Positions 5,697 through 57,685 of a stretch of 64,000 nucleotides of DNA are shown piece by piece. The stretch's first letter is position 1. Every line of letters starts with the position of its first letter. The position numbers and the translations under genes were made by a program. A model generated the notes under the pieces. It had not been told where the DNA came from and searched no databases. It saw nothing but the letters and a program-made list of their open reading frames with translations. The stretch lies in the NCBI GenBank assembly GCA_017503725.1, contig JAFVSL010000005.1, positions 15,455 to 79,454 on the forward strand, read 5' to 3'. The DNA is from Alphaproteobacteria bacterium (lineage in GTDB: Bacteria > Pseudomonadota > Alphaproteobacteria > Rs-D84).

Positions 5697-5733
5697 AAAA
5701 TCGCCAAATGGCGACTCTGACTGCTAAAAACGG

Positions 5734-5820
5734 TGGTGGGGATAGTGGGACTTGAACCCACACGGTCGCAATGACCAAAGGATTTTAAGTCCTCAGCGTC
5801 TACCATTCCGCCATATCCCC
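5734..5820 (-). tRNA. tRNA-Leu (anticodon TAA), class II with long variable arm, CCA encoded
   Basis: Reverse complement GGGGATATGGCGGAATGGTAGACGCTGAGGACTTAAAATCCTTTGGTCATTGCGACCGTGTGGGTTCAAGTCCCACTATCCCCACCA. Anticodon loop CTTAAAA. Confidence 0.8.
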
Positions 5821-5836
5821 GAAGACCTTAAAAATC

Positions 5837-5912
5837 TGGTGGAGCTGATGGGACTCAAACCCACGACCTCTACGATGCGAACGTAGCGCTCTATCAACTG
5901 AGCTACAACCCC
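5837..5912 (-). tRNA. tRNA-Ala (anticodon CGC), G3:U70 identity pair present, CCA encoded
   Basis: Reverse complement GGGGTTGTAGCTCAGTTGATAGAGCGCTACGTTCGCATCGTAGAGGTCGTGGGTTTGAGTCCCATCAGCTCCACCA. Anticodon loop TTCGCAT. Confidence 0.8.
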
Positions 5913-5919
5913 TAAAAAA

Positions 5920-6006
5920 TGGTGCGGATAAGAAGACTCGAACTTCCAAGGTATTGCTACCACTAGTACCTGAAACTAGCGCGTCTACCAATTCCGCCAT
6001 ATCCGC
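5920..6006 (-). tRNA. tRNA-Leu (anticodon CAG), class II, CCA encoded
   Basis: Reverse complement GCGGATATGGCGGAATTGGTAGACGCGCTAGTTTCAGGTACTAGTGGTAGCAATACCTTGGAAGTTCGAGTCTTCTTATCCGCACCA. Anticodon loop TTCAGGT. Confidence 0.8.
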
Positions 6007-6139
6007 AGGCGAAAACTATATTATATTAAATTTAAATTCTTTGCAACAAGAAAAATAAATCCATATAAACTTTTTAAACCGCAACAACACATATTTCACT
6101 TGCCCTAAAAATTATAAATTTGCTAACATTTCATCAGAG

Positions 6140-8845
6140 ATGAAGAAAGTTCTGATTTTTGTTGCATTGTGCCTGGGACTGACCGGTGGCACATATGGCG
6201 CCGTCCGTGACGGCGGGGTGGCAACACGCGCAAAAAACGGAACCGCAAACACCACACAGCGACTTACCAATTCAACAAAATCTGCACGCACGGCGGCACG
6301 CACATCTACATTAACGCCACGCGGGGTCGCAACCACAACAAAATCCGCCACAACACGTGCAACAACCGCCCGTGCGACAGTGAATAACGCCGCGCGCACC
6401 ACAACCGCCCGCGCCACCACACAAAATCAAAGCCCAATTCCACGTGTCATTTCACGTGCCACCACGGACACAGACACCCAAACACCACAAACCCGCACCG
6501 GGGCCGAATACGAACGTTGTAAAACGGCATATTTTACATGTATGGATCAATTTTGCGGCCAGAAAAATGACGACTATCGTCGTTGTTCGTGCAGTAATCG
6601 CCTCTATGATTTGGTGGACGCGCGCGAAACATTGACCCAGGCGGGCGAACAATTGACCGTATTTACAGAAAATCTGGACGTGGTTGGTATGACCGCCGCC
6701 CAGGCAACGGCTATGAAAACCGCATCCGACGGGGAAAAGGCCTTGGCTGATGACAAATCCGCATCCAAGGCGTTATTACAGGCCATATTAAATTCAATCC
6801 GTGGCAAAGATTCATCCGTTGGCGGTAAATTTTCAGACTTAAATTCTATAAACATTTCATTTGATACGGCAAACGCATTCGGCACAATGGACGCGGGCCA
6901 GGCAATCGCAACCTATAATGGGCAAAATTTATACAGTGCGGTTTATCCGCAATGTCGCGCGGCGGTACGCGCCGACTGTAACGACGCATCGTTACAGCGT
7001 GCAATAACCGCATATCTGATGGCAATAGAGCAAGATTGCAACACCGTCGAAACGGCGGTCGAAAACAAGCGCAAAGAAATGAAGTCCGCCATACGCGAGG
7101 GCAGCGCAATGTTAGATCTGGCACGTGTTGAAAATCGTCAAAAACATAATTCATCGGATATTACCACCTGTATCGCAGAGGTAGAGTCTGCAATCCTTAG
7201 TGAACAGGTTTGTGGGGCCGGATATCACAAGTGCCTGGACAATGGTGAATTTATAGATATATCCACCGGCGCACCAATTGCGGGTGTAACAAACTTCTAT
7301 CAATTGGCAGATATGTTGAAATTTGCCGGTGGTGTTGATGCAGCAAATCAAAAATTATCCAAGAATACCGCCAACCGCACATTTGTTCAAAACTTTGAAT
7401 CACGAACAAAAAAATTTGCGGCCGACGCATTGGACAAATGTGTCGAAGATGCGGACATCGTATGGTCTGAATACCTGGACCGGGCTTTATTAGACATATA
7501 CTATGCCCAAAGGGCCAAAGTTGATATCATCAAACAAGGGTGCTTTGATTTTGTATCAACCTGCTATATGAACGCAGACGGGTCGATGACCGACGCAATG
7601 AAAGAATTAACCGGGGACAGTGGCCTGACCATACAACCCAGCAAGATTACATTAACCGGTGCAATGTGTACGGATTATGTCAACTCTTGTAACAGTCTTT
7701 TCAAAACCGATATTATCAAAGACTATATCACCGAACGCCAGGAAACAGACACCCTGACCGCGTGTCGTGCGGTTGCCAAACAATGCTTTGACAGTTTTGG
7801 TGGTGCAAACTATGAAAACTTTTACTATCCGTACAGTGGTTTATTTACACCAAACACAGGAACCGCCCCAGATTGGTTTACACTTTATGAATATATCTCG
7901 GCCGATACGTATAGCAAAAAAAGCAACATAAACGACAAAACCAATTACGATTCAACATATACGGAATTTGCAGAATACGAGGGCAAATACCGTCGTTATA
8001 AATCAACCTGTGCGAAACAATTAACCGCCATAGACTCGTGCAATTCACCCGAAATGATAGAGGCCGCATTTGGTGGATTCGATAAAATGTACGTAGAATC
8101 CCTAAGCGACGATACCGCCACAACATTCAACACATCGGGTAATGGGACCTGTGATTATATATTCACAGGGGAAAAAACAGATGGTTCCACAGAAAAATAC
8201 GGCATTATGGACGGGGACTGCCTAAGTCATCGTATCGTGCGTCCAACCGGTGTCGCAACCGAGGTTTATAACCAGGTTATTGACATCCTGACAACCCAAT
8301 GCACAAACTTGCAGGGGCGCTTTATGGAACTGCAATACGGTCGCCTGAATCAATATATGTCCGACAATATCTGTATGTCGAATTTCACATTCCCAACTGA
8401 TAACAATGAAGAGAATCCGATCAAAAAACTTCTTGTTTTGGGCGACGGCAAAAAGGATCAACACGAAAATATGTGTCCACGCGATTATACACTGTCCGTA
8501 GACACAAAATCATGGGGGGCGTGCCTGTGCTGGGAAAATGGTGGCCGACGCAGTAAAAACGGCACATCCGCCAAATGTGTTGCTGCAATTCCGGTTGCCG
8601 CAAACGCCAATGACGCGACTTGCTCTAACGAGCTGTTAGATAAACTTGGGTGGCATTTTACAGAAGAAGACGCATTTAAAACACTTGTTTCTGATCCAAC
8701 CGCCTGGTGCGTACGTAACGTATATTCCAGCAAGAAACAAATATGCCCAGTCGCATATGATGATGGCGATGAAATTACGAGCAGTGGAGAATGCGATTAT
8801 GTTGTTGGCGGACAAAGTGATTTGCCAGACGGCCTGTCAATGTAA
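6140..8845 (+). CDS. Family-C large secreted protein, 901 aa. Signal peptide, a Thr/Ala/Arg-rich low-complexity region, then a Cys-rich domain beginning CKTAYFTCMDQFCGQKNDDYRRCSCSNRL.
   Basis: Long ORF with clear signal peptide MKKVLIFVALCLGLTGGTYG. Paralogous N-terminal architecture and Cys motif in the ORF at 62682..63647. Confidence 0.7.
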   Translation: MKKVLIFVALCLGLTGGTYGAVRDGGVATRAKNGTANTTQRLTNSTKSARTAARTSTLTPRGVATTTKSATTRATTARATVNNAARTTTARATTQNQSPIPRVISRATTDTDTQTPQTRTGAEYERCKTAYFTCMDQFCGQKNDDYRRCSCSNRLYDLVDARETLTQAGEQLTVFTENLDVVGMTAAQATAMKTASDGEKALADDKSASKALLQAILNSIRGKDSSVGGKFSDLNSINISFDTANAFGTMDAGQAIATYNGQNLYSAVYPQCRAAVRADCNDASLQRAITAYLMAIEQDCNTVETAVENKRKEMKSAIREGSAMLDLARVENRQKHNSSDITTCIAEVESAILSEQVCGAGYHKCLDNGEFIDISTGAPIAGVTNFYQLADMLKFAGGVDAANQKLSKNTANRTFVQNFESRTKKFAADALDKCVEDADIVWSEYLDRALLDIYYAQRAKVDIIKQGCFDFVSTCYMNADGSMTDAMKELTGDSGLTIQPSKITLTGAMCTDYVNSCNSLFKTDIIKDYITERQETDTLTACRAVAKQCFDSFGGANYENFYYPYSGLFTPNTGTAPDWFTLYEYISADTYSKKSNINDKTNYDSTYTEFAEYEGKYRRYKSTCAKQLTAIDSCNSPEMIEAAFGGFDKMYVESLSDDTATTFNTSGNGTCDYIFTGEKTDGSTEKYGIMDGDCLSHRIVRPTGVATEVYNQVIDILTTQCTNLQGRFMELQYGRLNQYMSDNICMSNFTFPTDNNEENPIKKLLVLGDGKKDQHENMCPRDYTLSVDTKSWGACLCWENGGRRSKNGTSAKCVAAIPVAANANDATCSNELLDKLGWHFTEEDAFKTLVSDPTAWCVRNVYSSKKQICPVAYDDGDEITSSGECDYVVGGQSDLPDGLSM

Positions 8846-11962: not shown

Positions 11963-12646
11963 ATGTCTGAAAAACAAGAAATTTTTACCCTTATGGGGGG
12001 GCGCGTTCGTATGCGCCGTGGTTTTTACAATCCAACATCAGATGCGGTGTGGCTGGCGGCGTTTACGCCAACGGGCGCAAAAACCGTGCTGGATGTCGGA
12101 ATTGGTTCCGGCGGGGTGGGGCTGTGCGTACTGGCGCATAATCCGGACATAAAATTAACGGGGATTGATGTGTCGGATGAAATGCTGAACGCGGCACGCG
12201 AAAACGCCGAATTAAATAACCGGGACATAGAACTAATCAACACCGACATTACCAAATGGCGCACAGACCGCACATTTGATATTGTTGTTACAAACCCACC
12301 ATACTTTCGTGGCACGCCCGCAAAACATAACGCACATCATAATGCAGATTTAACCGCGTGGATAAAGAAATGCGTTGCCCGCACAAAACCAAATGGATAT
12401 TGCTGTGTTATAACTGATGCAACAACCGTGGACAAAATAATTGCAGAAATGTCCGTGAATTGTGGTGATATAAATATCTTTCCGTTATTTGGTGCACGCG
12501 ATACCGCCGAACGCGTATTGTTGCGTGGGCGCGTGGGCGCACGGGGTGGGGCGACGCTGCATCGTGGGTTGCCTATGAATTGGGACCCGGTATTGCGCGA
12601 TGGCTTGACTATCGCCGAATCATTGGGTAAACTGTCCAAGATATGA
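11963..12646 (+). CDS. SAM-dependent methyltransferase with NPPY motif, resembling tRNA1(Val) (adenine37-N6)-methyltransferase of the TrmN6/YfiC type
   Basis: VLDVGIGSGGVGL (motif I) and VTNPPYF (motif IV). Start placed at the ATG 11963 (MSEKQEIF). The six-frame ORF begins at 11936. Confidence 0.65.
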   Translation: MSEKQEIFTLMGGRVRMRRGFYNPTSDAVWLAAFTPTGAKTVLDVGIGSGGVGLCVLAHNPDIKLTGIDVSDEMLNAARENAELNNRDIELINTDITKWRTDRTFDIVVTNPPYFRGTPAKHNAHHNADLTAWIKKCVARTKPNGYCCVITDATTVDKIIAEMSVNCGDINIFPLFGARDTAERVLLRGRVGARGGATLHRGLPMNWDPVLRDGLTIAESLGKLSKI

Positions 12647-13920
12647 TAAACTTTATAACAAGACATTTTACATCCCTGTGGGCGTTTGTAACGTCACCGT
12701 TTCGCGCGATATGGCGCGGAATTGTGCGTTTTTTTCCGCCACGCGAATTTACGGTTATGGATACACCGCGTGGTAATGTGTATACTTTCCAGCAAAGCAG
12801 TTTTTGGCGCTTTACGCGTTTTTGTGGCAAAATAGGGCTGATTATTTGGGCATCTTGGTCGACCTATGTATTTGTATATCATCGTCCGTTATTGCAAAAG
12901 CGCACCCAACAACTAGAGGAAATTCGTGCCGCACACGATCGTCATATGACTGATTTACAGACGTATTTGGCAAAATACAACGAATTGGCGCGCAACTTAA
13001 ATGTCATTGATGATAAAATCCTGAACGACAAGGAATTAAAACAAGATGAAAAAGACAAGTTAATGAACACACGTATCAAGACGTGGGGGGAATTGGACTT
13101 CTTGCGCACACGCATTAACGAAATGTTTAAAAACGAAGACTTCGCCCCTGAATATACCAAGATGTCTGAATTATCACTTGAATACGAATTGACACGCGCC
13201 GAAAACGAAGAATTAAAAAAACGCAACACCCAGATGATGGAATCAATGGCCGAAATCGCATCGGCTGACACCCAGATTGTTGATTTGGTCACATCTATGA
13301 CAACCCAGAACACCGAAGAATTACGCGCCGGAATTAAAAAGATAAAATCCACCGTAAATTCATTGGGACTAAGCGAACGTGCGCTGGTTACACGTGCAAA
13401 CAAATTTTCCAGTCCAATTGTCGGTTCGGCATTCAATCCACTTGAATTTGACAAAGAAATGGATGAAAAATACAAAAAACTGGCCGATGGTTTGGAATTA
13501 TGGCACGGCCTTAGCCGCTTGAACGAAATGCTGCCAATTGGTGCCCCGGTTGAAAAGGTTCGCATTACATCAAACTATGGCAAACGCGCCGATCCATTTA
13601 CCGGCGAAACCAAGCGCCACAAGGGAATCGATTTTGCAGGTAAAATTGGCACAGAATTATTTGCCGTTGCCCCCGGCCGCGTGGTTTCCGCCGGCGACAG
13701 AATAGGGTACGGTACAACGGTTGAAATCGACCACGGACTGGGCTTTACAACGCTTTACGCGCACCTGTCCCAGATAATGGTTTCGCGTGGTGATTGGGTA
13801 CGTCCGGGCACGGTTATCGGTCTGGGGGGCTCGTCGGGCCGTTCAACGGGACCGCACTTGCACTATGAAATCCGTTACAAGGGCGCCCAGTTTGACCCAA
13901 CTAAATTTGTAAAGGAATAA
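12643..13920 (+). CDS. M23 family peptidase with N-terminal TM segment and long coiled-coil, EnvC-like architecture
   Basis: C-terminal KGIDFAG...HLHYEIRYKG M23 motifs. A coiled-coil-rich middle region. ATGA overlap with the upstream gene. Confidence 0.8.
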   Translation: MINFITRHFTSLWAFVTSPFRAIWRGIVRFFPPREFTVMDTPRGNVYTFQQSSFWRFTRFCGKIGLIIWASWSTYVFVYHRPLLQKRTQQLEEIRAAHDRHMTDLQTYLAKYNELARNLNVIDDKILNDKELKQDEKDKLMNTRIKTWGELDFLRTRINEMFKNEDFAPEYTKMSELSLEYELTRAENEELKKRNTQMMESMAEIASADTQIVDLVTSMTTQNTEELRAGIKKIKSTVNSLGLSERALVTRANKFSSPIVGSAFNPLEFDKEMDEKYKKLADGLELWHGLSRLNEMLPIGAPVEKVRITSNYGKRADPFTGETKRHKGIDFAGKIGTELFAVAPGRVVSAGDRIGYGTTVEIDHGLGFTTLYAHLSQIMVSRGDWVRPGTVIGLGGSSGRSTGPHLHYEIRYKGAQFDPTKFVKE

Positions 13921-13925
13921 GAAAA

Positions 13926-14276
13926 ATGTTGGCATTTACAAACGCAAAAGAAAAACAATCACCGACCATTATTGGCGCGGGTTGCAAATTAACCGGTGAC
14001 ATAAAAACAGATCACAGTGTCCAAATTCACGGCGAAATTATCGGCGATGTAACAGCCGATGTGGTCGTTATTGGTCGCGGTGGCAGTGTCCAGGGCAAGG
14101 TGACGGCATCACACCTGTTCTTGCACGGGACATTGGATGGTCCGGCAACCGTAAACACGGCAAATATTTTCAGTGCTGCCCAAATGACCGGCGTGCTGTC
14201 TTATCATACATTGAACATCACCGGCAACACGGGTCTGGAATGCAAATTATCGAAACGAAAGGACAAGGCAAAATGA
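13926..14276 (+). CDS. Bactofilin family cytoskeletal protein (DUF583)
   Basis: Repeated beta-helical pattern I.G...G.I......I.G.V.G.V typical of bactofilins. Lies 5 nt downstream of the M23 gene. Confidence 0.7.
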   Translation: MLAFTNAKEKQSPTIIGAGCKLTGDIKTDHSVQIHGEIIGDVTADVVVIGRGGSVQGKVTASHLFLHGTLDGPATVNTANIFSAAQMTGVLSYHTLNITGNTGLECKLSKRKDKAK

Positions 14277-43686: not shown

Positions 43687-44121
43687 ATGAAAAACGAAGA
43701 TATTTTCTTAAAAATCGTTAACCAAAACCCATCTATTTATCAATATGTAGAATTCAAAACCGGCACCCCATACATCAGCGCATTTGACACAAACGGCCGT
43801 CGTACTGCCAAGCATGTAACCTATGACGATAAACATCGTGCCCTAGAACTGGCCATAAGCACCAAGGCACCAACCCTGTCATACGACAACGGTGTTTATT
43901 GTTGGGCAGACGGTACAAATGTTTATCTATTTGTTGAACCAGACCTGGCGCGCGCCCTGTGGCCAAATCGCGAACCATTACAGAACGGATATGTACCAAT
44001 GGCAAATGGCGAAACATTACTGACATTTCCATCATTGATGCACCTGCGCAATACATCATATCATCATCAGAAACAAAAACTGATGAACGCGGCCCAACGC
44101 AACACACAGCACACAATATAA
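43687..44121 (+). CDS. Hypothetical protein
   Basis: RBS AAGGAG upstream of the ATG. Terminator hairpin at 44124-44150. Confidence 0.5.
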   Translation: MKNEDIFLKIVNQNPSIYQYVEFKTGTPYISAFDTNGRRTAKHVTYDDKHRALELAISTKAPTLSYDNGVYCWADGTNVYLFVEPDLARALWPNREPLQNGYVPMANGETLLTFPSLMHLRNTSYHHQKQKLMNAAQRNTQHTI

Positions 44122-44300: not shown

Positions 44301-44326
44301 CGTCCATCCGGACGGTTGAATTTCTG

Positions 44327-44375
44327 GCACGCCCTACAGGATTCGAACCTGTGACCTGCAGATTAGAAATCGTCT
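44327..44375 (-). pseudogene. tRNA-Arg(TCT)-like 3' half: anticodon loop to CCA with no 5' half. Candidate att remnant.
   Basis: Reverse complement CGATTTCTAATCTGCAGGTCACAGGTTCGAATCCTGTAGGGCGTGCCA has an intact T-arm, acceptor and CCA. The upstream sequence is not tRNA-like. Confidence 0.55.
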
Positions 44376-44479
44376 GAACCGAAACCGATTGTTTGCCCGA
44401 TTCCCGCCCTTTGCCACCATTTTACCCTTATACTAAACTCCATACTATGTAGCAAATATGTAACATTTTTACAAAAACG

Positions 44480-45532
44480 CTACACAATTTCCCAATGACC
44501 GCCACGATCTGGACCGATACGGCGAATTTTCCCGGACTTTTTCAATTTATCCAGATTCCACTTTACACCATCCGGGCTAAGCCCTGTTGCGCTGGCCAAT
44601 TCGGCACGTGTTGCACTTGGATTCTTCGCCAATATATCCAAAATTTTCTGGGCAGTTTTCTGGGTAGTTTTCTGGGTAGTTTTCTGGGTAGTTTTTGCCA
44701 CATTTTCCTTTATCTGCATTTCACGATTATCAAGGCGATTTTTCTCGCCCAATAACAAATTACCAAAGAATTTGTTCAAGTATTCCATCGTGTACGGAAT
44801 ATTCTTTTCCAGATTTTGATAATTCGCACGAACCAGTGCATTTCTGAAATATTTCGCATGCTTTTCAAACATTTCATTGTTTGTATGCAAACCCAACGTA
44901 TCTAAATACTTTATAATAAATACAACTGTCGCGCGAGTATTCCCCTCGCCAAACGGGTGTATTTGCCATATCCCAGACATAAATTTTTCAATATGTTCTA
45001 TGCGTTGGCGTTTGGTTAAACTGCTATAATCAAACTGTTTCTCTTGTGCAAAATCGTATTCCAGCGTTTCAGCAATACTGTCTGCCCGACCATAGACAAC
45101 AGTATCATTGTTCAATATTTCTTCTTTCTTGGTTATATTATATGTGCGGAACTGACCAGCTATTTTTTTATCCAGAACACCATCAAATAAAGCCCCATGA
45201 ATCGATTTATATTCGGCCGGGCTGAATGTAAATGTCTTTTCGCTTAATAATTTCGCAATACGTGCAGATACCTTATCAGCTTCTTGCTCGTCTTGCTCTT
45301 TCTGGGTAGTTGCAGCATTTTCATGATAATAGCGATTTATTTCACGTTCTGCATCATAGACCGATATTTTCCCCTCTATATTATCTTTTGCAATATCAAT
45401 CAGATATTTAGATGGCGTTAAATTATCAACCATCTGCAGACCAATGGCAACACCCCAGTTTTCTGCACGAGTGCGTTTATCCGGTTCGCCTTGCTTTTTA
45501 TATTCACTAAAATACTGCTTTTGTCTTGCCAT
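44480..45532 (-). CDS. Fic/DOC family protein with C-terminal winged-HTH. Contains an in-frame TTQK x4 tandem repeat.
   Basis: Fic motif HPFGEGNTRAT. C-terminal wHTH (ILDILAKNPSATRAELASATGLSPDGVKWNLDKLKKSGKIRRI). Confidence 0.8.
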   Translation of the reverse strand: MARQKQYFSEYKKQGEPDKRTRAENWGVAIGLQMVDNLTPSKYLIDIAKDNIEGKISVYDAEREINRYYHENAATTQKEQDEQEADKVSARIAKLLSEKTFTFSPAEYKSIHGALFDGVLDKKIAGQFRTYNITKKEEILNNDTVVYGRADSIAETLEYDFAQEKQFDYSSLTKRQRIEHIEKFMSGIWQIHPFGEGNTRATVVFIIKYLDTLGLHTNNEMFEKHAKYFRNALVRANYQNLEKNIPYTMEYLNKFFGNLLLGEKNRLDNREMQIKENVAKTTQKTTQKTTQKTAQKILDILAKNPSATRAELASATGLSPDGVKWNLDKLKKSGKIRRIGPDRGGHWEIV

Positions 45533-45623
45533 CTCTGAATTTCATAGTAATCAAACTTCCCCACCTTTTCAACCAAGAAATAAAAACGCGGTCATTCGAC
45601 CACGTTTTTTCGTTCGGTTATAT

Positions 45624-48236
45624 TTATTCCTGTTTGTATCGTTTTTCTCTGTTTAAGAAAGCCTCAAAACCGCCCTCTAGAGCATATAATTTGGCACGTT
45701 GTTCCATATTTTCTATGGTAAAACTTGTTATGTTAGAATCTTTATCAAGATGAATCACTTGATCAGAGTCACCATTTATAACTATATTTGCATTGTGTGT
45801 AGCAAAAATAATTTGCCGTTTAGATTTGATGATTTTTAATATTTTTACTAACTCATTATATATTACAGGTTCTCCTAGGTTGCTTTCTGGTTCATCTATA
45901 ATGATTGGTGTATTTCCAAGTGATAATAATATAATAATAGTTGCGGTTGCTCTTTGTCCAAATGAGCAATCCAATATGTTTTTGTTGTTGTACAGTATAT
46001 TTATTTGTTTGTACTTAACAATATTGTTATATATTTCATCATACTTTGTTTGGAATTCATCCCAATAAATTGTTAAATAATTTGATAAATATTCGACAAT
46101 TTTTAAATCTTGTTTTTCTAACTTCTTGATATAATCTTCTGGTTTATTTATGTTTTTTGGGCATATAAAAGAATTGTTCGAAATTAGTCTCCTTTCCAAT
46201 TCAGATATAAAACTACGTTCTGTTATTTTTAATTCTTGCAATCTATGATCTAGCCAATTGATAAAATCTTTATTCGCTGTTCTATAATCAAAAGTTAATT
46301 CAAAGTTTATCAAGGAACTTTCTTTTCCGCCTATGTTAACCATCTTTTGTGATAAAGAAGTAAATTCTTCTTGTAATGTATTCTGATATGCCTTGATATC
46401 ATTATCAATGTCATTTACAACATTTTTCATAGATACTATATCCGAACGAAGTCCAGAAATTTTAATCATGCATTGTTTAATTTGCTCTTCAAGATTCACT
46501 TTGTTTTGTTCCAAAACAAGTTTGTCTGTTAAATTCTCATCGTTTTCAAAACCACGAAGTTTCAAATATTCTTTCAGTTGGTCTTGTATTTGAACGATGT
46601 CTGAATTGATAGTTTGAAGGCGTTTTTCGGTTGTTTCGAATTGTTTTGGAACAAATGTTTCACCGGCAAATACGGTATGTTCTTCTAATAAGGTTCTTAA
46701 AGATTCAAAAATTGCGTTATATGCTATTCCATATTCGCTTGACGGCTCTGCAGGAATATAATTACCTGTTTTGTGTTCATCGGAATGGTGAACAATGCGA
46801 AGTAATTCTAAAATAACTTTTGTGTATTTATCTTTTTCAATTTGTATATTATTACCTTGTAATATATTTGCTCTTAACCGTTTATTAAAATCAATATAAG
46901 TTTCATCACTAATCCCTGAAATGATTTTTTCAATGTGTTGCTGTTTAATGGTTAAATTGTTCTTTTCTGTTTCGGCATCTAATAATTGCTTGTTTTTGTT
47001 TATAATAGAAATGTAACAGGCAAGTTTATTTTGAATACGTTGTTCTATGTCAGAAAGCGTTGGAGATTGTATTCGATGTCTAACAATATTGGTTATTTCA
47101 TAATTTCTTGCTATACTCTCTATCTCGTTTTGTGTGTAGTATTCTACCTGATCTGTGTTTTTTGTTTCTGCTAAAAATTCTGTCGGTTTATATTGTTTGT
47201 TTAATATTTTGTTAATTATATGATCTCCTTTCTCTCTGATCTTTTTATTGATGGATGAAAGCCCCATTTTATAAGCCAGCAAATCTAGAAAGACCGATTT
47301 TCCTGTTCCTCTATCTCCAATTATACAAATCAGTCCTTTGTTAAGAAATACTTCTTGGTTGATTCCAGAAAAGCAAAATTTGTCCTCTTTCCCGTCCACA
47401 AGTGGTATATATACTTCATCAGGTACAGATAACCGAACATTTTCAATATTGTATAAAGATTCTTCAGGAACCGCCCCAGAAGGTTTTACCTGTATTCTAG
47501 ATTCGCATGAGCAAAGCGCCTGTCTTAGACCTTCTAGTGTTAAATCTGATTTGATCCACAAATCTGCTTTAGGGCTATATGCTCTTGCATCGTGATTGTC
47601 GGAACACAGAATCATAGGGTATACACCTATATTTGGAAATACTTTTTCTTTGTATTCTGCCATATCTCTTTCTTGTCCCATTTCAAAAATATCAATTTTG
47701 TTAACAATATCTGTTTTGATAGCTTGAGATACCTGTAACGAATTTGTTATAACATCATCGATACCATTGCTTTTTCTTCCCGCGTGTATAGATACTAGAC
47801 CATTAAATTCTCGGATTATTTCAATGGCCGCATCTATGTTTACATAGATTTCGTCCTCTGTTCTGCCATTCTGCTTCTGATGATATATACCGCCTTTGTG
47901 TTCAAACGAATTATTGATAGCATCAATGTCAACATGTTCATCAAATATCCCGATTATGTGAATATTCTCTCCAGCACCGCATTCTGTTCGAATTTCAATT
48001 CCTGGAAATACAACCAATTTATCTGCAGCTAATCTTTGTAAATTTTCTATTCTATTTTTATCAATATTGTTATGATCTGTTATTACGACCGCAGAAATAT
48101 TTTTTGAAGTTAAACTATTTATGATGTCTTCGTCGGTTATTGCATTATTTTTATAATCTGAAGAAGATGGTGTATGAAAATGCAAATCCCATTTGTGCCA
48201 TTGGGAACCACAAAAAGATTTTCTTAAATTACCCAT
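45624..48236 (-). CDS. 870-aa protein: N-terminal PHP-type phosphoesterase domain plus ABC/SMC-like ATPase with a long coiled-coil insert between Walker A and Walker B. Defence-type single-protein architecture.
   Basis: PHP motifs (WDLHFHTPSSSDY, VITDHNN, HAGR). Walker A GDRGTGKS. Walker B IIIDEPES. H-loop FATHNANIV. A coiled-coil of about 400 aa in between. The gene is AT-rich. Confidence 0.75.
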   Translation of the reverse strand: MGNLRKSFCGSQWHKWDLHFHTPSSSDYKNNAITDEDIINSLTSKNISAVVITDHNNIDKNRIENLQRLAADKLVVFPGIEIRTECGAGENIHIIGIFDEHVDIDAINNSFEHKGGIYHQKQNGRTEDEIYVNIDAAIEIIREFNGLVSIHAGRKSNGIDDVITNSLQVSQAIKTDIVNKIDIFEMGQERDMAEYKEKVFPNIGVYPMILCSDNHDARAYSPKADLWIKSDLTLEGLRQALCSCESRIQVKPSGAVPEESLYNIENVRLSVPDEVYIPLVDGKEDKFCFSGINQEVFLNKGLICIIGDRGTGKSVFLDLLAYKMGLSSINKKIREKGDHIINKILNKQYKPTEFLAETKNTDQVEYYTQNEIESIARNYEITNIVRHRIQSPTLSDIEQRIQNKLACYISIINKNKQLLDAETEKNNLTIKQQHIEKIISGISDETYIDFNKRLRANILQGNNIQIEKDKYTKVILELLRIVHHSDEHKTGNYIPAEPSSEYGIAYNAIFESLRTLLEEHTVFAGETFVPKQFETTEKRLQTINSDIVQIQDQLKEYLKLRGFENDENLTDKLVLEQNKVNLEEQIKQCMIKISGLRSDIVSMKNVVNDIDNDIKAYQNTLQEEFTSLSQKMVNIGGKESSLINFELTFDYRTANKDFINWLDHRLQELKITERSFISELERRLISNNSFICPKNINKPEDYIKKLEKQDLKIVEYLSNYLTIYWDEFQTKYDEIYNNIVKYKQINILYNNKNILDCSFGQRATATIIILLSLGNTPIIIDEPESNLGEPVIYNELVKILKIIKSKRQIIFATHNANIVINGDSDQVIHLDKDSNITSFTIENMEQRAKLYALEGGFEAFLNREKRYKQE

Positions 48237-48388
48237 ATTATTTGTGCCCTTATGTTAATATTATTATATATCCAATATACCGATACAAGTATAGCTTGGT
48301 TTAATTTTATTTTCAACCTTGCAAATACCTGTTACTTTTGCCAAAATATAAATACACAGTATATCCATATGAAGTCAGCAACCCCATC

Positions 48389-48760
48389 ATGATCACGATA
48401 TTATTATCCATTAAGCCGCAATTTGTAAAAAAGATACTTTCTGGTGAAAAGTGTTTTGAATTCAGAAAGCATATTCCAAATAAAGCGATTGATAAAATTT
48501 TGATATACAGTTCCTATCCGGTGTGTGCTGTTGTAGGAGAGGTAGAAGTTCTAAGTATAATATCTACATCGCCAAAAAAGCTGTGGGAAGAAACTAAAAA
48601 TCAATCGGGAATTGATTCTGAGTTCTTTTTCAAATATTTTGCCGGCAAGGATACAGCATACGCATATAAGCTAGGCAAAATAACAAAATATCCAATTGCA
48701 AAACAGTTAAGTGACTTCGGGGTAAAATATGCCCCTCAGTCATTTGTTTACATAAAGTAA
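48389..48760 (+). CDS. ASCH (PUA-like) domain protein
   Basis: MITILLSIKPQFVKKILSGEKCFEFRK resembles the N-terminal beta-barrel of ASCH domains. ATG at 48389. The six-frame ORF begins at a TTG at 48338. Confidence 0.5.
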   Translation: MITILLSIKPQFVKKILSGEKCFEFRKHIPNKAIDKILIYSSYPVCAVVGEVEVLSIISTSPKKLWEETKNQSGIDSEFFFKYFAGKDTAYAYKLGKITKYPIAKQLSDFGVKYAPQSFVYIK

Positions 48761-48761
48761 A

Positions 48762-49727
48762 TTACCATTCTACATCGATGTAAAACATATCGGCTGGTTG
48801 ACCAAGCAACTGTATATCGAATTTCAAACTTGGTTCTACAATCGTGCTGGCACTGTGTATTCTGAAAGATATCGCCCAACCATTGTCCATTGTTAACACG
48901 ATGGTCGTTTTAGAACCGGGTTTGTATGCTAATTCAATAATTCTTGTAGGTAGTTTGATTTTTGGGATGCTAATCTGCGGTTTAGACACTTTAGATGACT
49001 GGTTTAGGGTGCCGCATACATTAAATGGCATTACTGTGGTTTTATGATCGTTATGGTGGATTAGTTTATAATAATCTTTGCCATTTGACCCCAGTAGATA
49101 TGCGATTATTCCAGATGTAACTTTATCATTATGCAGTTTGAATAGGCTATTAAACTCATCAATAAATGCATCTAAAACTGGCACATAAACGCCATCTTGC
49201 TTATCTGGTAAATCTGACCACGCCACACCGTTATGTTTCAACTCTATAAGCCGGTTAAAAATTGGAGTTATAGCAGAAAAATATTTGTCCGAGCACGGTA
49301 AACCAAACCATTCGTTCCCAAAATCAATATGTTGGGACAATCTGGAGTGTTTAAGAGCAGCATGATTATGTTTCACGGATATCCCTATCTCCCATTTAAT
49401 ATCTCTGCGAATTATGATGACATCACGAATATCACCAGTTCTTGCAATATTATCTGGTTGTAAAAATATTGTCAACGCATCTCTTCCGTCTTCAATGATC
49501 TTTGGTTCCATTTGAATAATGACATCTATACCGGCTGCAGCTGATTTTAGCATATCTTGCTGAACTGTTTCTGTTACACATTCAAAACATTGTTTAGCTA
49601 CCGCAAAGCTGGAGTTTTCTTCAATCGTCACAGGACGGATCTTGGAAACCTTATCATGTATTGTTTGCAAACATGCGTATTCGTATGCCTTGCCCATAAT
49701 CATTGATTGTTCGGTGGATCTGTTCAT
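48762..49727 (-). CDS. Probable Type II restriction endonuclease partnered with the adjacent C5-methyltransferase
   Basis: 321-aa ORF overlapping the MTase stop by 4 nt on the same strand. No sequence motif is conclusive. Assignment is by context and size. Confidence 0.45.
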
Positions 49728-50713
49728 TCGGTTAAATCCTCCATAATCTGTTTTGCAATTTCAAAAGCTAGATTGACAGGAACTGCATTGCCAATCATTT
49801 TGTATCCCACAGCAACATCGGTATATACAAAAATGAAGTCATCCGGGAAGGTTTGGATTCTTGCGCACTCGCGCACGGAAAGTCTGCGATAAGCAGATTC
49901 TTGTCCTTTTACAAATTCGAACTTGTCAGTACTTGCCTTTTGCATAGCTGGTGCGCTGGGGTGTAATGGTGCTTGGCGACCTCCAGCCTGAATAGTGAAA
50001 GAAGGTTCATTCCATCCCCTTACACGATTTCGTGACATAAATATAGAAGACCAGCCACCGATCATGTATTCATGATTAGGAATTTGCAATTCTCCATTGG
50101 TCTTGTTCTTTTCTTTTGCTGGAATTGCGGTCGGCAAATCGCCGATCGCATCTTTCAGGGTTGGCTTATATTCTTTTGGTGCAGGAAACACAAATTTCTT
50201 TTTAAGATCTTTGCGATATCCAATTATGATAACCCTTTTGCGGGTTTCTGGAACGTTATAATCATTAGCATCCACCAATTGCCAGAATATATCATATCCA
50301 CAATCTTCAAATTCTTTTAGAAATCCCTGAAACGCATCAGCGTGTTTTGGATGTAATATGCCAGCCACATTTTCTACCAAGAAGAACTTGGGTTGTTTTA
50401 CTTTCAAAATCCGAATATAGTCATAAAACAGTTGGCCTCGTTTATCTTCTATTCCTCGTCTCGCTCCAGCTTCCGACCAACTTTGACATGGAGGTCCACC
50501 TATAATGCCGATAGAATCTGGGATTTCGCTAGCATCAACATCGGTAATGCTACGTCTGTCCAGCTTAGTGTGTGGAAAATTACGTTCAAAAGTCGCCCAT
50601 ATAGTTTTATCAAACTCATTTGCCCATATAGTATGAAAACCTGCTTTTTCAAAACCTAAATCTAAACCACCAGCACCGCTAAAAAACGACACAACACTAA
50701 AATCTTTCGACAT
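49724..50713 (-). CDS. DNA (cytosine-5)-methyltransferase, from memory closely resembling the GGCC-specific M.HaeIII
   Basis: Motif [12 protein letters not shown], motif [11 protein letters not shown], motif VI ENVAGIL, the C-terminal ...[16 protein letters not shown], and the variable region ...KNKTNGE...[33 protein letters not shown]. Confidence 0.9.
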
Positions 50714-50844: not shown

Positions 50845-51441
50845 TCATTTTCTGCTTTCAAGAAATCGCGAAATTGTGGGCGGGCTGACCCGGATAGTTC
50901 TGGCAATTTTTCGTTTAGAAACTCCTGCTGAATACATATCTAAAATCAAGTTTTCATGACCGTCAATGATATGGTAAGTATTCTTTTGGCCATTTGGACG
51001 GCCCAGTTTTACACCGCGTAATTGCAATGCTGCCAATGCCTCTTTGGTGCGCTGGGCGATAAGATTACGTTCAATCTCAGCTGATAGCCCAAATGCAAAC
51101 GCTAAAACCTTAGATTGAATAGTGTCACCCAACTCATAGCCATCTTTGACGGTATAAAGACGCGCCCCTATTTTCATGCAATGTTCCAATATTCGCATAA
51201 TCATGAACATTTTTCGCCCAAGACGCGAAAGTTCACTACATATTATAACGTCGCCCGGATTTAAATGTTGCAAAACACCGCCTAATGCGCGTTGCTCTGG
51301 CTCTTTGGTGCCGGAAATGCCCGCATCTTCAATGTATTTATCAATACAAAGCCCTAATGCGCTGGCTTTGGATTCAATGCCCAATTTTTGGTTTTCACAG
51401 TCTTGTTTATCGGTCGAAACCCGAATATACCCATATATCAC
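50845..51441 (-). CDS. Serine recombinase (resolvase/invertase family)
   Basis: N-terminal catalytic MIYGYIRVSTDKQ (Ser nucleophile). C-terminal HTH. 198 aa. Confidence 0.85.
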   Translation of the reverse strand: MIYGYIRVSTDKQDCENQKLGIESKASALGLCIDKYIEDAGISGTKEPEQRALGGVLQHLNPGDVIICSELSRLGRKMFMIMRILEHCMKIGARLYTVKDGYELGDTIQSKVLAFAFGLSAEIERNLIAQRTKEALAALQLRGVKLGRPNGQKNTYHIIDGHENLILDMYSAGVSKRKIARTIRVSPPTISRFLESRK

Positions 51442-51597
51442 AATAAACTCCTTTGGTTTGTTGTTCTATATGCCGTAGATTTCATTTTATTCAAGTAAAA
51501 ATAATGTTGATATTACCCTTGCTTTTACTAAATGTCGTATTATTAAACTGGATGTTTGCGCTGGTTGTGCTTTGTTTGTTCTAAAAAAGGAGTAAGC

Positions 51598-52767
51598 ATG
51601 ACATTAAAAGAATCAATCAACAACCTAGAAATACGGATAATCAAGGATAAACAGCAACTTATTCGCCTAGAGCGGGAATTAAATAAAAATCAACAACTAA
51701 CAATAAAAATCTTGCAACAAATTTGTCAGCAAATGCAAATGACACAAAAAACACAGTATACCAAGCGGTTATCAATTGGTGAGGTGCTGGAACGTTACAG
51801 AATAAAAAACGGAATAGACAGCGAGGAGACCAAGCGTAAATGCAAAACTATAGCATATTATTCAAATAAAGTAGGCTTAGAATTGAAATGCGAGTATACA
51901 AAATTTCATAGGGATGTAATTTTGTTGAAAATATTTAATGAAATATCAGATAGAAAAGATATAAAGGGGGATCAGAAAGCAAAGCATGCTAGATGGATTG
52001 TTAGTTTTGTAAAATTTGCAGTATTTGCATATCCTGACCTGTATAAAACAGATGTGCTGGTTGGACTTCCATCTATGAAAAAAACACCCAAAAGCGCCAA
52101 ATGCCCCCATACTCCATATACAGATGAACAATTGAAGTCTATTTTTGACCCGAATAAGAAATTCTTTTATTATAATCCAGAGATTTTTTGGGGGTGTATG
52201 ATAGCATTATTTACTGGTGCAAGAAAAAATGCAGCATTTACATTACAATACAAAGATATAATTCTAAAAGATGGTATTTGGTGTATAAATTTCATAGAAG
52301 ACAGTCCAGGAATTAAACAATTAAAAACAGAAGAGTCTGAGCGAATAGTACCAATTCATTCGGCGCTTTTGAAAATGGGTTTCTTAGAATACATCAATAA
52401 AAAACATAAAAACAATGATCAAGATTTTATCTTTAAAAAGACATGCTTGACCTCCAAAGGCAATCTAAATCCTCACATTACGAGGAACTTTTTTATATAC
52501 CTAAAAGATATCGGTGTAAAAAATCCAGAATATGGAAGGTTTGATTTTCATTCATTCCGTAAAAATGCAAACATTATGATGGAAAAATGCGGGATACTCC
52601 GACCCTATATAGATAAGATTATCGGTTGGATGAGTCGTGGTAGCGAGGGCGAAAGATCATATTCAAATTACTCCATAAAACAAGTGTCGGAACAATTAGA
52701 ATTATTACGCTACGATTGTCTCAAAACGGAATTTAAGAGATGGCAAAAGATAATGTCTAAGATATAA
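51598..52767 (+). CDS. Tyrosine integrase/recombinase (phage integrase family)
   Basis: C-terminal catalytic region with R...H.FRKNA...GW...Y pattern. RBS AAGGAG upstream of ATG 51598. Confidence 0.7.
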   Translation: MTLKESINNLEIRIIKDKQQLIRLERELNKNQQLTIKILQQICQQMQMTQKTQYTKRLSIGEVLERYRIKNGIDSEETKRKCKTIAYYSNKVGLELKCEYTKFHRDVILLKIFNEISDRKDIKGDQKAKHARWIVSFVKFAVFAYPDLYKTDVLVGLPSMKKTPKSAKCPHTPYTDEQLKSIFDPNKKFFYYNPEIFWGCMIALFTGARKNAAFTLQYKDIILKDGIWCINFIEDSPGIKQLKTEESERIVPIHSALLKMGFLEYINKKHKNNDQDFIFKKTCLTSKGNLNPHITRNFFIYLKDIGVKNPEYGRFDFHSFRKNANIMMEKCGILRPYIDKIIGWMSRGSEGERSYSNYSIKQVSEQLELLRYDCLKTEFKRWQKIMSKI

Positions 52768-55955: not shown

Positions 55956-56018
55956 TAGTCTTATTCACTGGACTTGTGCGCTTTTATTATCAATGTTGTG
56001 TGTAACAAAGGACAACAT

Positions 56019-57230
56019 ATGCGGGCACTTAAATGTCAAAAGTTGGTTTTAACAACAGGATTTCTGAACAAACTGAAATCCGACATTGATTTGCAAATAA
56101 CAGATGCAGCACTGCCAGGGCTACAATGCCGGTATTCGGCCGCATCTGGACGCAAAGTGTTCTATTTGGGATATCGCGTTCGCGGTTCATATCAACAAAA
56201 GCATATGAGATTGGGCACATTGGCGGAATTTAGCTTAAATGAGATTCGCGCACGTGCGATACAAACCAAACAAGATATCGCCAACGGTCTGGACCCGCAA
56301 TCAGAACAACGCATACGCATAAAGCAAAACGAAATGGCCGCAGCACGACGTAAACAAGTCCGTGAACTAACCCCAATATTTATGGAAAAACATTGTCGCG
56401 AAAATAATCGGGAAAACACCTATCGCTCAAACGAAACATTGATGCGCCTATATATAATCCCATATCTTGGCGATAAATACATTGCAGATATTGATCTGCG
56501 CACAATCCAGGATATGTACGATAAAATCAAAAACACAAAAACCGTTGCTGTTGGATTGCATGTTATGCGGTTATTATCGACCTTTCTAAATTGGTGTGAA
56601 AAATACAATTATCGCACAATAAATTCGAATCCGTGCCATTTGGTTCAAAAGGCAAAATCCCCAAAGATGAACCATACGATTCTAGATATTGATGGTTATA
56701 AACGTTTATTTACTGCACTGGACGAGGCATTTTGCGCTGGGAAATATGCACCACAAACCATCCTGGCTATTAAAACACTTGCGCTGACGGGCTGTCGCAG
56801 CAGCGAAATAACAAGCCTGGAACGGGACGAATTAGACCTAGAAAACGGGTATCTACGTTTAAATAAACGCAAAACAGATGCATTTAATGTACCGCTGGGC
56901 GATCCAGCAATCGAAGTTATAAAACAGGCATTGAGAATTTGTAAAAGCAAACAGTATGTTTTTCATTCCCCAATTGACCATACACGCCCATTAACCGATT
57001 TACGTAAAGCGTTCTGGTGGGCATTGGATCGTGCTGGATTACCGCGTATGCGAATACACGACCTGCGCCACTCTTTTGCAACACTGGCCACCAGCATGGG
57101 CGAAGATATACGAATATTAAAAGACGTATTGGGACACACAAAAATCACCACAACTGAAATATACGCACACGCATCAAGTATTGCGGCACGCCGCACTGCA
57201 AACAATGTTGCAAGCATGATAACAGGATAA
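56019..57230 (+). CDS. Phage-type tyrosine integrase (P4-like), convergent on tRNA-Arg
   Basis: Catalytic residues in ...GCRSSEITSLERDELDL... HDLRHSFATLA ... TTEIYAH (R, H-x-x-R, Y). RBS AAAGGA upstream of ATG 56019. Confidence 0.85.
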   Translation: MRALKCQKLVLTTGFLNKLKSDIDLQITDAALPGLQCRYSAASGRKVFYLGYRVRGSYQQKHMRLGTLAEFSLNEIRARAIQTKQDIANGLDPQSEQRIRIKQNEMAAARRKQVRELTPIFMEKHCRENNRENTYRSNETLMRLYIIPYLGDKYIADIDLRTIQDMYDKIKNTKTVAVGLHVMRLLSTFLNWCEKYNYRTINSNPCHLVQKAKSPKMNHTILDIDGYKRLFTALDEAFCAGKYAPQTILAIKTLALTGCRSSEITSLERDELDLENGYLRLNKRKTDAFNVPLGDPAIEVIKQALRICKSKQYVFHSPIDHTRPLTDLRKAFWWALDRAGLPRMRIHDLRHSFATLATSMGEDIRILKDVLGHTKITTTEIYAHASSIAARRTANNVASMITG

Positions 57231-57296
57231 ATTGGTGAATACTGGGTCAACAAATAAAAAGAAAATCGGGGTAAACCCGATTTAATTTTTGGCGTG

Positions 57297-57373
57297 CCCA
57301 GCAGGATTCGAACCTGCAACCTATTGCTTAGAAGGCAATTGCTCTATCCGGTTGAGCCATGGGCACAAAACCA
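57297..57373 (-). tRNA. tRNA-Arg (anticodon TCT), CCA encoded. Its 3' end faces the integrase.
   Basis: Reverse complement GTGCCCATGGCTCAACCGGATAGAGCAATTGCCTTCTAAGCAATAGGTTGCAGGTTCGAATCCTGCTGGGCACGCCA folds as a perfect cloverleaf. Confidence 0.85.
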
Positions 57374-57570
57374 ACTGTATGGAATTCGGCACACCATGCG
57401 ACCAATTCCTGTGTAACATTCTATGTAACAAATATGTAACATTATACATACAATTACATACAATTCAATCAATCTGTGTCAAGTTTTATACAGAACTGAT
57501 TTTCACGCACACCCGCATAAATCCAACCTTTATACATCTTTATCCAAATCTATCCATAAAAATTGCGGAC

Positions 57571-57618
57571 GATTAGAAATCCGATGCTCTATCCAGCTGA
57601 GCTACGGGCGCACGACGC
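57571..57618 (-). pseudogene. tRNA-Arg 5' half (acceptor, D-arm, anticodon stem 5' strand and loop TTTCTAA), broken after the anticodon loop
   Basis: Reverse complement GCGCCCGTAGCTCAGCTGGATAGAGCATCGGATTTCTAATCG, then non-tRNA sequence. Its acceptor matches the fragment at 44195-44213. Confidence 0.55.
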
Positions 57619-57685
57619 ACATTTTATATCAAAATTATTAAGATTTCAAGCACACACAAATAAAAAATGCCCCAACGGGGCATTT

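Follow-up and report, generated by a model that had tools for sequence, protein, structure and literature searches.

The stretch of DNA analysed here, called the window throughout, consists of 64,000 nucleotides (nt) of contig JAFVSL010000005.1 from an Alphaproteobacteria bacterium (assembly GCA_017503725.1). One of its genes combines in one chain a PHP domain, with the complete ligand set for a trinuclear metal centre, and a Rad50/SMC-type ABC ATPase head that has all its catalytic motifs. This gene is horizontally acquired cargo of an integrative island of about 13 kb located at a tRNA-Arg gene. Its homology makes it a candidate for a self-contained defence nuclease of the Ppl/TrlF superfamily, a reading that we consider probable although not firm. 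It is a divergent new member of the Ppl/TrlF kind, which is already catalogued. The gene is the following:

45624..48236, minus strand: PHP nuclease-ABC ATPase fusion gene, a complete open reading frame (ORF) of 870 amino acids with an ATG start

An exact-sequence look-up identifies the 870-residue product as GenBank MBR2393119.1, which is annotated as 'hypothetical protein'. A ribosome-binding-like motif, AAGGG, is found 9-13 nt 5' of the start codon. The protein can be divided into four segments:

47484..48209, minus strand: PHP domain (residues 10-251), recognized by its invariant ligands, an alpha/beta barrel in the AlphaFold2 model and Foldseek matches
47073..47450, minus strand: N-terminal half of the ABC head (residues 263-388), with Walker A, Q369 and matches to Rad50, SMC5 and ABC profiles
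46032..47066, minus strand: helical coiled-coil insertion (residues 391-735), recognized from AlphaFold2 secondary structure and from the sequence
45651..46013, minus strand: C-terminal half of the ABC head (residues 742-862), with SFGQR, Walker B, H814 and a Pfam AAA_21 match

The PHP motifs in the translation are HFHT (residues 19-22), DHNN (54-57), HAGR (151-154) and CSDNH (211-215). Those of the ATPase are Walker A (GDRGTGKS, residues 307-314, window positions 47295-47318), the Q-loop (Q369), the ABC signature (SFGQR, residues 758-762), Walker B (PIIIDEPE, residues 777-784, window positions 45885-45908) and an H-loop (ATHNAN) that contains H814. A preliminary description of this DNA had proposed a PHP phosphoesterase fused to an SMC-like ABC ATPase. 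All the motifs that it named were recovered at their places when translation and coordinates were checked, and CSDNH, Q369 and SFGQR add three further ones. Nine PHP ligands (H19, H21, D54, H55, E81, H93, H151, D213 and H215) are invariant when 33 full-length homologues, 30-55% identical, are aligned. The same holds for G307, R309, G310, G312, K313, S314, Q369, S758, G760, D781 and E784 of the ATPase, and H814 is nearly invariant (at least 90%). Since these residues are invariant across homologues that are only 30-55% identical, the motifs are functional and not chance strings.

The predicted structure agrees with this division. The AlphaFold2 model, built on a 33-sequence alignment (mean predicted local distance difference test score, pLDDT, 85.4; predicted template modelling score, pTM, 0.75), shows an alpha/beta barrel at residues 11-251, followed by a beta-rich linker that leads into the N-terminal ABC lobe bearing Walker A. 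The insertion contains long helices at residues 391-438, 444-482, 533-559, 565-606 and 609-634. The helical insertion announced in the preliminary description thus exists, but it is about 345 residues long (391-735) and not the 400 residues of coiled coil given there. Its long antiparallel helices span approximately residues 391-634, a coiled coil of about 250 residues that is much shorter than those of SMC or Rad50. Reading of the sequence revealed no CxxC zinc hook in residues 391-735.

Fold and profile searches point to the same two domains. Using Foldseek against the PDB, the N-terminus matched the PHP domain of RNase AM (7ug9 and 9etk, E ~2e-6) and that of Pol III alpha, the PHP-domain matches having target-normalised template modelling (TM) scores of 0.46-0.59 and sequence identities of 12-19%. 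The ATPase part matched the heads of SMC, JetC, MukB, Rad50 and condensin. A profile search of the PDB gave Rad50 as the top match, together with SMC5, ABC proteins and a PHP phosphoesterase. Among Pfam models, AAA_21 scored above its cutoff (34.3 bits, cutoff 27), whereas PHP was weak (18.3 bits versus a cutoff of 26.4) and SMC_N was below threshold (18 bits). The single-sequence search of the PDB returned nothing useful, its best match being UvrA at E=0.05, and no Ppl structure was among the PDB entries searched. Profile searches and the predicted fold therefore agree on a PHP domain fused to an SMC-like ABC ATPase. Domain and fold searches likewise both identify the N-terminus as PHP, a point on which the preliminary description had allowed that it might be wrong.

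This protein belongs to a large family. More than 1000 database proteins were found at E<=1e-5 among the scored candidates, and relatives were found in at least 566 species-representative genomes belonging to many phyla. Phage and satellite-like records contain homologues as well. A tblastn search of plasmids gave 1135 records, mostly partial matches to the ABC ATPase, and was not used for inference. The closest homologue, from a Hadza-gut metagenome, is 93% identical and a few others are 53-55% identical. Identity falls to 30-34% with the nearest species-representative genomes and to 18-23% with Ppl-like or TrlG-paired proteins.

The protein passes the curated cutoff of the NCBIfam model NF045780, 'TrlF family AAA-like ATPase' (381 bits, cutoff 350), over its full length (residues 10-868, aligned with positions 2-944 of the 944-position profile). 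Of the 11 family members scored on that model, it has the lowest value. Its best PADLOC match is the Ppl profile PDLC02208 (E=1.3e-30, 104 bits), the best stretch covering profile positions 3-305 of 894, that is the N-terminal third and not the full length. The NCBIfam Ppl equivalog model NF042955 gave 120 bits in two stretches and its cutoff of 1000 bits was not reached. A Hafnia homologue (L059; L numbers denote loci) served as proxy for the authentic tested Ppl; this proxy scores 520 bits on positions 3-892 of the PADLOC Ppl profile and 616 bits on the NCBIfam Ppl model. An hhalign comparison with the Ppl-like clade gave a probability of 100% and E=2.5e-62 over 785 aligned columns, colinear over the full length at 21% identity, the coiled-coil insertion aligning with its Ppl-like equivalent only at the profile level. 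The likeness to Ppl, which the preliminary description had suggested, is thus confirmed both by the best PADLOC match and by this colinearity. Besides, only 17 of 5426 complete Escherichia coli genomes carry a Ppl-like gene that shares 91-96% identity with the Hafnia homologue (13 on chromosomes and 4 on plasmids). Instead of Ppl, the RefSeq label of the ten listed E. coli matches H8-H17 is 'TrlF family AAA-like ATPase'.

When 73 full-length proteins were arranged in a neighbour-joining tree (capped distance, 200 bootstraps), the deepest split received 100% bootstrap support. One half (39 proteins) contains the TrlG-paired proteins and a Ppl-like group of four that includes L059; the other (34 proteins) contains MBR2393119.1, and 33 of its 34 members have no TrlG. 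ORFs were called in 80 family loci and the neighbours were clustered. In 31 of these loci, a protein of about 390 residues carrying SLFN_AlbA_2 and HATPase_c_4 domains, which is TrlG, is encoded directly downstream on the same strand and usually overlaps. Almost all of these loci belong to the half opposite MBR2393119.1. A hidden Markov model built from 28 TrlG-like neighbours found no TrlG in any frame of the 64-kb window at E<=10. No TrlR-type helix-turn-helix gene lies upstream, the upstream gene being a divergent one that encodes an ASCH domain. A Ppl orthologue was rejected (120 versus 1000 bits, and a position on the other side of the 100% split), as was a canonical TrlF (Fic gene downstream, no TrlG and no trlR-type gene). 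The protein is thus a homologue of Ppl and formally a member of the 'TrlF family', but it is distinct both from Ppl orthologues and from canonical TrlF.

Comparison of active sites across the tree refines this placement. No variation is seen at K313, Q369, S758, D781 and E784 and hardly any at H814, which means that selection acts on the ATPase in all parts of the tree. The residue that follows the Walker B aspartate is a glutamine (DQPE) throughout the Ppl/TrlFG half (39 of 39 proteins) and in 22 of the 34 proteins of the other half. MBR2393119.1 and the subclade around it (76% bootstrap) have a glutamate (DEPE), the relatives concerned being L001, L003-L006, L014, L017, L020-L022 and L034. 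In ABC ATPases, the choice between glutamate and glutamine at this position usually decides whether ATP is hydrolysed, glutamate being the canonical catalytic base. Since this glutamate, which the DQPE Ppl-like proteins lack, is kept, real ATP hydrolysis is expected. About half of the 34-protein half has three PHP histidines replaced (H55Y, H93N and H151A/G/P/S/C). The full ligand set is kept in MBR2393119.1, in its nearest relatives (L001, L003-L006) and in the Ppl-like proteins.

What is reported for Ppl suggests how such a protein could work. Ppl reportedly was presented by Gao et al. in 2020 as a single-gene anti-phage protein, and a study by Xu et al. in Mol Cell in 2026 is said to deal with its mechanism. 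According to a review (PMC12904381) and to PMC13434339, which cites Xu et al., Ppl is a single-stranded DNA 3'-5' exonuclease that is inhibited by nucleoside triphosphates (NTPs) bound to both its PHP and NTPase domains. A shortage of nucleotides, combined with 3'-OH ends that phage homing endonucleases produce, activates it. By homology, the PHP domain of MBR2393119.1 would be a metal-dependent exonuclease that attacks invading DNA at free 3'-OH ends and degrades it. Control would lie with the ATPase head, a nucleotide- and DNA-dependent switch that holds the nuclease off at normal NTP levels, and the nuclease would be released once phage infection makes DNA ends and drains nucleotides. Considering the DEPE motif, this switch may involve Rad50-like engagement and disengagement of the heads on DNA rather than pure nucleotide sensing.

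The setting of the gene is that of a mobile island. Its G+C content is about 0.31 versus about 0.45 for the surrounding genome. An island-free relative has DUF308, a tRNA gene and TspO in succession at this place; about 13 kb separate the same flanks in the window. The features of the island are as follows:

44322..44371, minus strand: displaced 3' part of the native tRNA-Arg, an island boundary, 92% identical to the tRNA of the island-free relative
44480..45532, minus strand: gene for a Fic and winged-helix protein (Pfam Fic and HTH_24; PADLOC PDC-S72, 378 bits)
48389..48760, plus strand: ASCH-domain gene, 123 amino acids from a conserved methionine (weak Pfam ASCH match; PADLOC PDC-M11B, 147 bits)
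48762-49727, minus strand: HaeIII-family endonuclease (Pfam RE_HaeIII, 397 bits; PADLOC REase_II)
49724-50713, minus strand: C5 cytosine methyltransferase (Pfam DNA_methylase, 320 bits; PADLOC MTase_II)
50845-51441, minus strand: small serine resolvase
51556-52767, plus strand: tyrosine integrase
55974-57230, plus strand: second tyrosine integrase
57290-57366, minus strand: intact tRNA-Arg(TCT), adjoining the second integrase
57571-57635: native-like 5' part of tRNA-Arg

The island also holds small phage-like genes (DUF6362 and DUF6291). The neighbours are those announced beforehand from the letters alone: Pfam matches show Fic with a winged helix on one side and a HaeIII-type endonuclease with a C5 methyltransferase on the other. 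A defence island had also been proposed, and the low-GC, integrase-bearing element flanked by tRNA-Arg does carry a type II restriction-modification (R-M) pair and two genes that PADLOC lists as phage defence candidates.

Several details of the island deserve mention in their own right. Its junctions (44313-44467, 57278-57443 and 57571-57635) are more complex than a simple duplication of attachment sites: the native tRNA-Arg seems to be split into its 3' and 5' parts, the island brings an intact tRNA-Arg(TCT) of its own, and an additional 27-nt repeat, 93% identical, is present (44441-44467 and 57417-57443). Given two integrases and a resolvase, the island may have a composite or tandem make-up. 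An ORF of 144 amino acids (43687-44121, plus strand), located between TspO and the displaced tRNA fragment, has no Pfam match; as it has no counterpart in the island-free relative, it may be the remnant of an older insertion. The Fic gene contains four in-frame 12-nt tandem repeats (44644-44691), which are translated into a KTTQ linker joining the Fic and helix-turn-helix domains. ASCH and EVE domains have PUA-like folds and are often readers of modified bases. The ASCH gene stands between the HaeIII endonuclease and the PHP-ATPase gene in all close relatives, and in the distant relative L022 an EVE-domain protein is encoded upstream instead.

The design of the protein and its company of recombinases could also suit a repair, recombination or element-maintenance factor, that is, a single-chain analogue of SbcCD/Mre11-Rad50 serving the island or the host. 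A nuclease joined to an SMC-like ATPase with a coiled coil is indeed the SbcCD/Mre11-Rad50 design, Rad50 is the top profile match in the PDB and some relatives lie among housekeeping genes. However, the distribution of the gene is patchy, horizontally transferred and of low GC, and there is no conserved repair operon around it: uvrA, about 5 kb away, belongs to the core genome outside the island. Furthermore, the protein has no zinc hook and no partner of the Mre11/SbcD type, and among its functionally tested homologues the nearest one is an anti-phage protein. We consider a role in repair or maintenance very improbable. A repair protein of the SbcC/RecF type proper was rejected on context and anatomy; the conserved RecF/SbcC repair operon, which the preliminary description had named as an outcome that would speak against defence, did not come up, the gene being located in a mobile island.

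Evidence on whether the gene acts alone comes from its borders and from its close relatives. Two signals were considered at the borders:

45582..45609, minus strand: terminator-like hairpin with a 12-bp stem followed by a T-run, starting 15 nt past the stop codon and before the Fic gene
48288..48316, minus strand: promoter-like site TTGAAA-17-TATACT (consensus scan, 10/12 matches), in the 152-nt divergent intergenic region

A second promoter-like site lies in the 91-nt gap between the PHP-ATPase and Fic genes (45533-45623). From the promoter and terminator scans, only the positions of two sites were used, as weak support. The comparison with relatives is more direct. Homology at the DNA level with L003, a 93% identical relative, breaks off at 45614, which is 10 nt past the stop codon. 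In relatives more than 90% identical, the block formed by the methyltransferase, endonuclease, ASCH and PHP-ATPase genes, sometimes preceded by the resolvase, is kept in several chromosomal contexts, and a KAP NTPase (PADLOC PDC-S20) is encoded 2-8 nt downstream instead of Fic. Moreover, a 53% identical homologue is found alone beside an integrase and an HTH_17 gene at two unrelated chromosomal sites. The exchange of Fic for KAP, the break in homology and the solitary homologue together indicate that Fic is exchangeable and that the PHP-ATPase gene is a self-contained cassette. The genomic evidence shows no conserved partner gene for the PHP-ATPase. The KAP-family P-loop NTPase of loci L088-L095 (in L088 at about 12616-14253) matches PDC-S20 and, more weakly, PifA and QatA. 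Since it starts 2 nt after the stop codon of the PHP-ATPase gene, co-transcription of the two genes is suggested in these relatives.

These data bear directly on a two-gene system with the downstream Fic/winged-helix protein, in which Fic would be sensor or effector. Both genes are on the same strand and only 91 nt apart, Fic matches a PADLOC defence candidate, and a protein of DNA-binding type follows TrlF in canonical TrlFG loci. Nevertheless, the KAP NTPase occupies the place of Fic in every other close relative examined, the homology break falls 10 nt past the PHP-ATPase stop, and the gap between the genes contains a terminator-like hairpin and a promoter-like site. In addition, PDC-S72 is a single-gene candidate in PADLOC, as its 'S' prefix indicates, and Fic was not among the recurrent neighbour families in a census of 82 neighbours taken within two genes on either side at the 25 closest-scoring loci. 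A Fic partnership is the least credible of the alternatives, with very little in its favour overall. As a partner, Fic was rejected because of the KAP NTPase found in its place in relatives more than 90% identical, the homology break and the intervening hairpin.

In the same census, R-M families dominate: ResIII (5), Methylase_S (5), D12 methyltransferase (3), N6_Mtase (2) and Eco57I (2), to which SWI2_SNF2, HaeIII, PstI, AlwI, GmrSD and HsdR can be added. At several loci of the clade, an R-M gene on the same strand ends 3-12 nt before the PHP-ATPase gene. This is the case in L011 (hsdS-X-hsdR), L013 (hsdS, with GmrSD after the gene), L019 (PstI-like endonuclease) and L038 (AlwI endonuclease). 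L020 has a fused methyltransferase-S gene upstream, which we read as type IIG-like, and HsdR or type III-like genes are found in the vicinity at additional loci. On the other side of the deepest split, the genes for an N6_N4 methyltransferase, TrlF and TrlG overlap in the manner of three-gene operons.

Some individual loci illustrate these arrangements. The N6_N4 methyltransferase gene directly precedes the PHP-ATPase gene with an overlap in L021, L040, L050 and L067 and lies 11 nt upstream in L028. TrlG follows the PHP-ATPase in L040, L067 and L021, an arrangement that resembles an R-M-like operon with the PHP-ATPase as would-be nuclease. The L011 relative (5297-7840) is inserted in a type I R-M operon, with hsdS on one side and hsdR on the other; likewise, the anticodon nuclease PrrC lies within the EcoprrI type I R-M locus.

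This association raises the question of a functional coupling to the adjoining R-M system, in which the nuclease-ATPase would process restriction ends, so that single cuts become irreversible degradation, or act, like PrrC, as a latent back-up once a phage disables R-M. The block of methyltransferase, HaeIII endonuclease, ASCH and PHP-ATPase genes is kept in all the relatives more than 90% identical that were examined, distant clade members closely follow diverse R-M genes, the other half has its operon-like overlaps, and Ppl is reported (PMC12904381) to need 3'-OH ends made by another endonuclease. However, R-M genes are absent from the surroundings of the 53% identical homologue and the R-M types are mixed (I and II). 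Such heterogeneity fits co-residence in islands better than a specific protein partnership. Furthermore, the ASCH gene lies on the opposite strand between the endonuclease gene and the PHP-ATPase gene, the latter has its own promoter-like site, and HaeIII-type enzymes leave blunt ends, not 3' overhangs. We judge this coupling unlikely.

A broader proposal takes up the DEPE motif as well: the DEPE subclade, with its complete PHP site, canonical Walker B glutamate and lack of TrlG, would be a distinct defence module, an ATP-hydrolysing single-chain analogue of Mre11-Rad50 that is allied to its restriction enzyme or fires when R-M is neutralised. We see this as conceivable but doubtful. If true, restriction cuts would be turned into processive exonucleolytic destruction, whichever restriction enzyme gene the module rides behind, and the Ppl-like DQPE proteins would be slow-hydrolysing nucleotide sensors to which the DEPE subclade represents a different solution.

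The reading of the gene as a self-contained defence nuclease has to be weighed against several points. Identity to the Ppl-like proteins is only about 21%, the defence role of this branch is a putative one, and the Ppl equivalog cutoff is missed by far (120 versus 1000 bits). The difference between DEPE and DQPE may entail a regulatory logic unlike that of Ppl. Some relatives in the clade are found in housekeeping surroundings (ribonucleotide reductase, phosphoglucomutase, SprB). The promoter and terminator calls are consensus matches, and the numbers of such sites equal the expectation from shuffled sequence. The closest solved PHP structure is that of RNase AM, which is a 5'-3' exoribonuclease; therefore, neither the choice between DNA and RNA as substrate nor the polarity can be read from the fold. 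Finally, the temperature-restriction phenotype of Photorhabdus was mapped only to trlG, with no role shown for TrlF (PMC7554251).

The RNase AM match is also the starting point for an RNA-directed effector, an RNase AM-like exoribonuclease that would attack host or phage RNA and lead to abortive infection or growth arrest. Not only are 9etk and 7ug9 the best structural matches of the PHP domain, but weak NCBIfam matches to RNase RNM and to a 3',5'-bisphosphate phosphatase were also obtained. Moreover, the only reported counter-defence against Ppl, Bas63 gp130, which counteracts it, resembles the RNA-binding Ro60 (PMC11482910), and the TRL operon restricts growth of its Photorhabdus host, indicating toxicity (PMC7554251). 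On the other side, Ppl is reported to be a single-stranded DNA 3'-5' exonuclease (PMC12904381; PMC13434339), the ATPase half resembles the DNA-handling heads of SMC, Rad50 and JetC and not RNA-handling ATPases, and the PHP domain of Pol III alpha, which acts on DNA, is also among the structural matches. An RNA target appears improbable to us. Ranked by likelihood, the alternatives thus begin with R-M coupling, followed by RNA targeting, then by repair or maintenance and lastly by the two-gene system with Fic, and a self-contained defence nuclease is the reading that we prefer.

Nothing is overturned by this analysis, since such a gene in such an island is what a specialist would expect. Nevertheless, it is now possible to annotate the gene as a nuclease-ATPase of the Ppl/TrlF superfamily that is carried by a defined tRNA-Arg island. 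Furthermore, the label 'TrlF family' lumps together at least three things: TrlG-paired TrlF, Ppl-like solo proteins and a large solo half whose genes are repeatedly located directly behind R-M genes. Part of this solo half restores the canonical Walker B glutamate, which can guide the choice of representatives in infection-sensing experiments. The present gene may be worth testing as a representative of the solo DEPE branch.

Comparison with known systems helps to situate the protein. The PHP proteins RNase AM (YciV/TrpH), Pol III alpha and PolX provide the closest solved folds for residues 10-251, but their PHP domain is stand-alone or attached to a polymerase and lacks an ATPase. With PrrC and RloC the likeness is one of location: several members of the PHP-ATPase clade are also inserted in R-M operons. 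PrrC cleaves tRNA, and no sign of physical coupling to the R-M system is seen in the window.

Other defence systems share the logic of an SMC/ABC ATPase sensor combined with a nuclease effector. These are OLD and Gabija GajA, PARIS AriA-AriB, Wadjet JetC-JetD and Lamassu LmuB, and weak PADLOC and Foldseek matches to LmuB, JetC and AriA were obtained (for AriA, 8v46, E ~2e-3 on the ATPase head in the fold search). Unlike the protein studied here, they use TOPRIM, Cap4 and other nucleases and not PHP, and no orthology links them to it. No TOPRIM match was found for the PHP-ATPase protein in Pfam, NCBIfam or PADLOC.

SbcCD/Mre11-Rad50 resembles it in pairing a metal-dependent nuclease with an SMC-like ABC ATPase in which a coiled coil lies between the two halves of the head, and Rad50/SMC heads are the best profile and fold matches for its C-terminal 580 residues. 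However, the nuclease is here a PHP domain fused in cis and not of the calcineurin type, no Mre11/SbcD gene is adjacent, the coiled coil of about 250 residues has no CxxC and the gene is mobile, patchily distributed and low in GC.

The two relatives that give the superfamily its name are the most similar. TrlF of the Photorhabdus trlR-trlF-trlG operon (PMC7554251) has the same PHP and ATPase architecture, and our protein passes the TrlF family model NF045780; canonical TrlF, however, has an overlapping trlG downstream, and the window contains neither TrlG nor a TrlR-type gene. Compared with Ppl, the protein is about 21% identical to the proxy L059, lies on the opposite side of the deepest split of the family and has DEPE in place of DQPE. 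In spite of this distance, both are single chains in which an N-terminal PHP domain with the same ligand set is followed, in colinear order, by an ABC/SMC-like ATPase with a coiled-coil insertion, and both are encoded by stand-alone genes in mobile or defence contexts.

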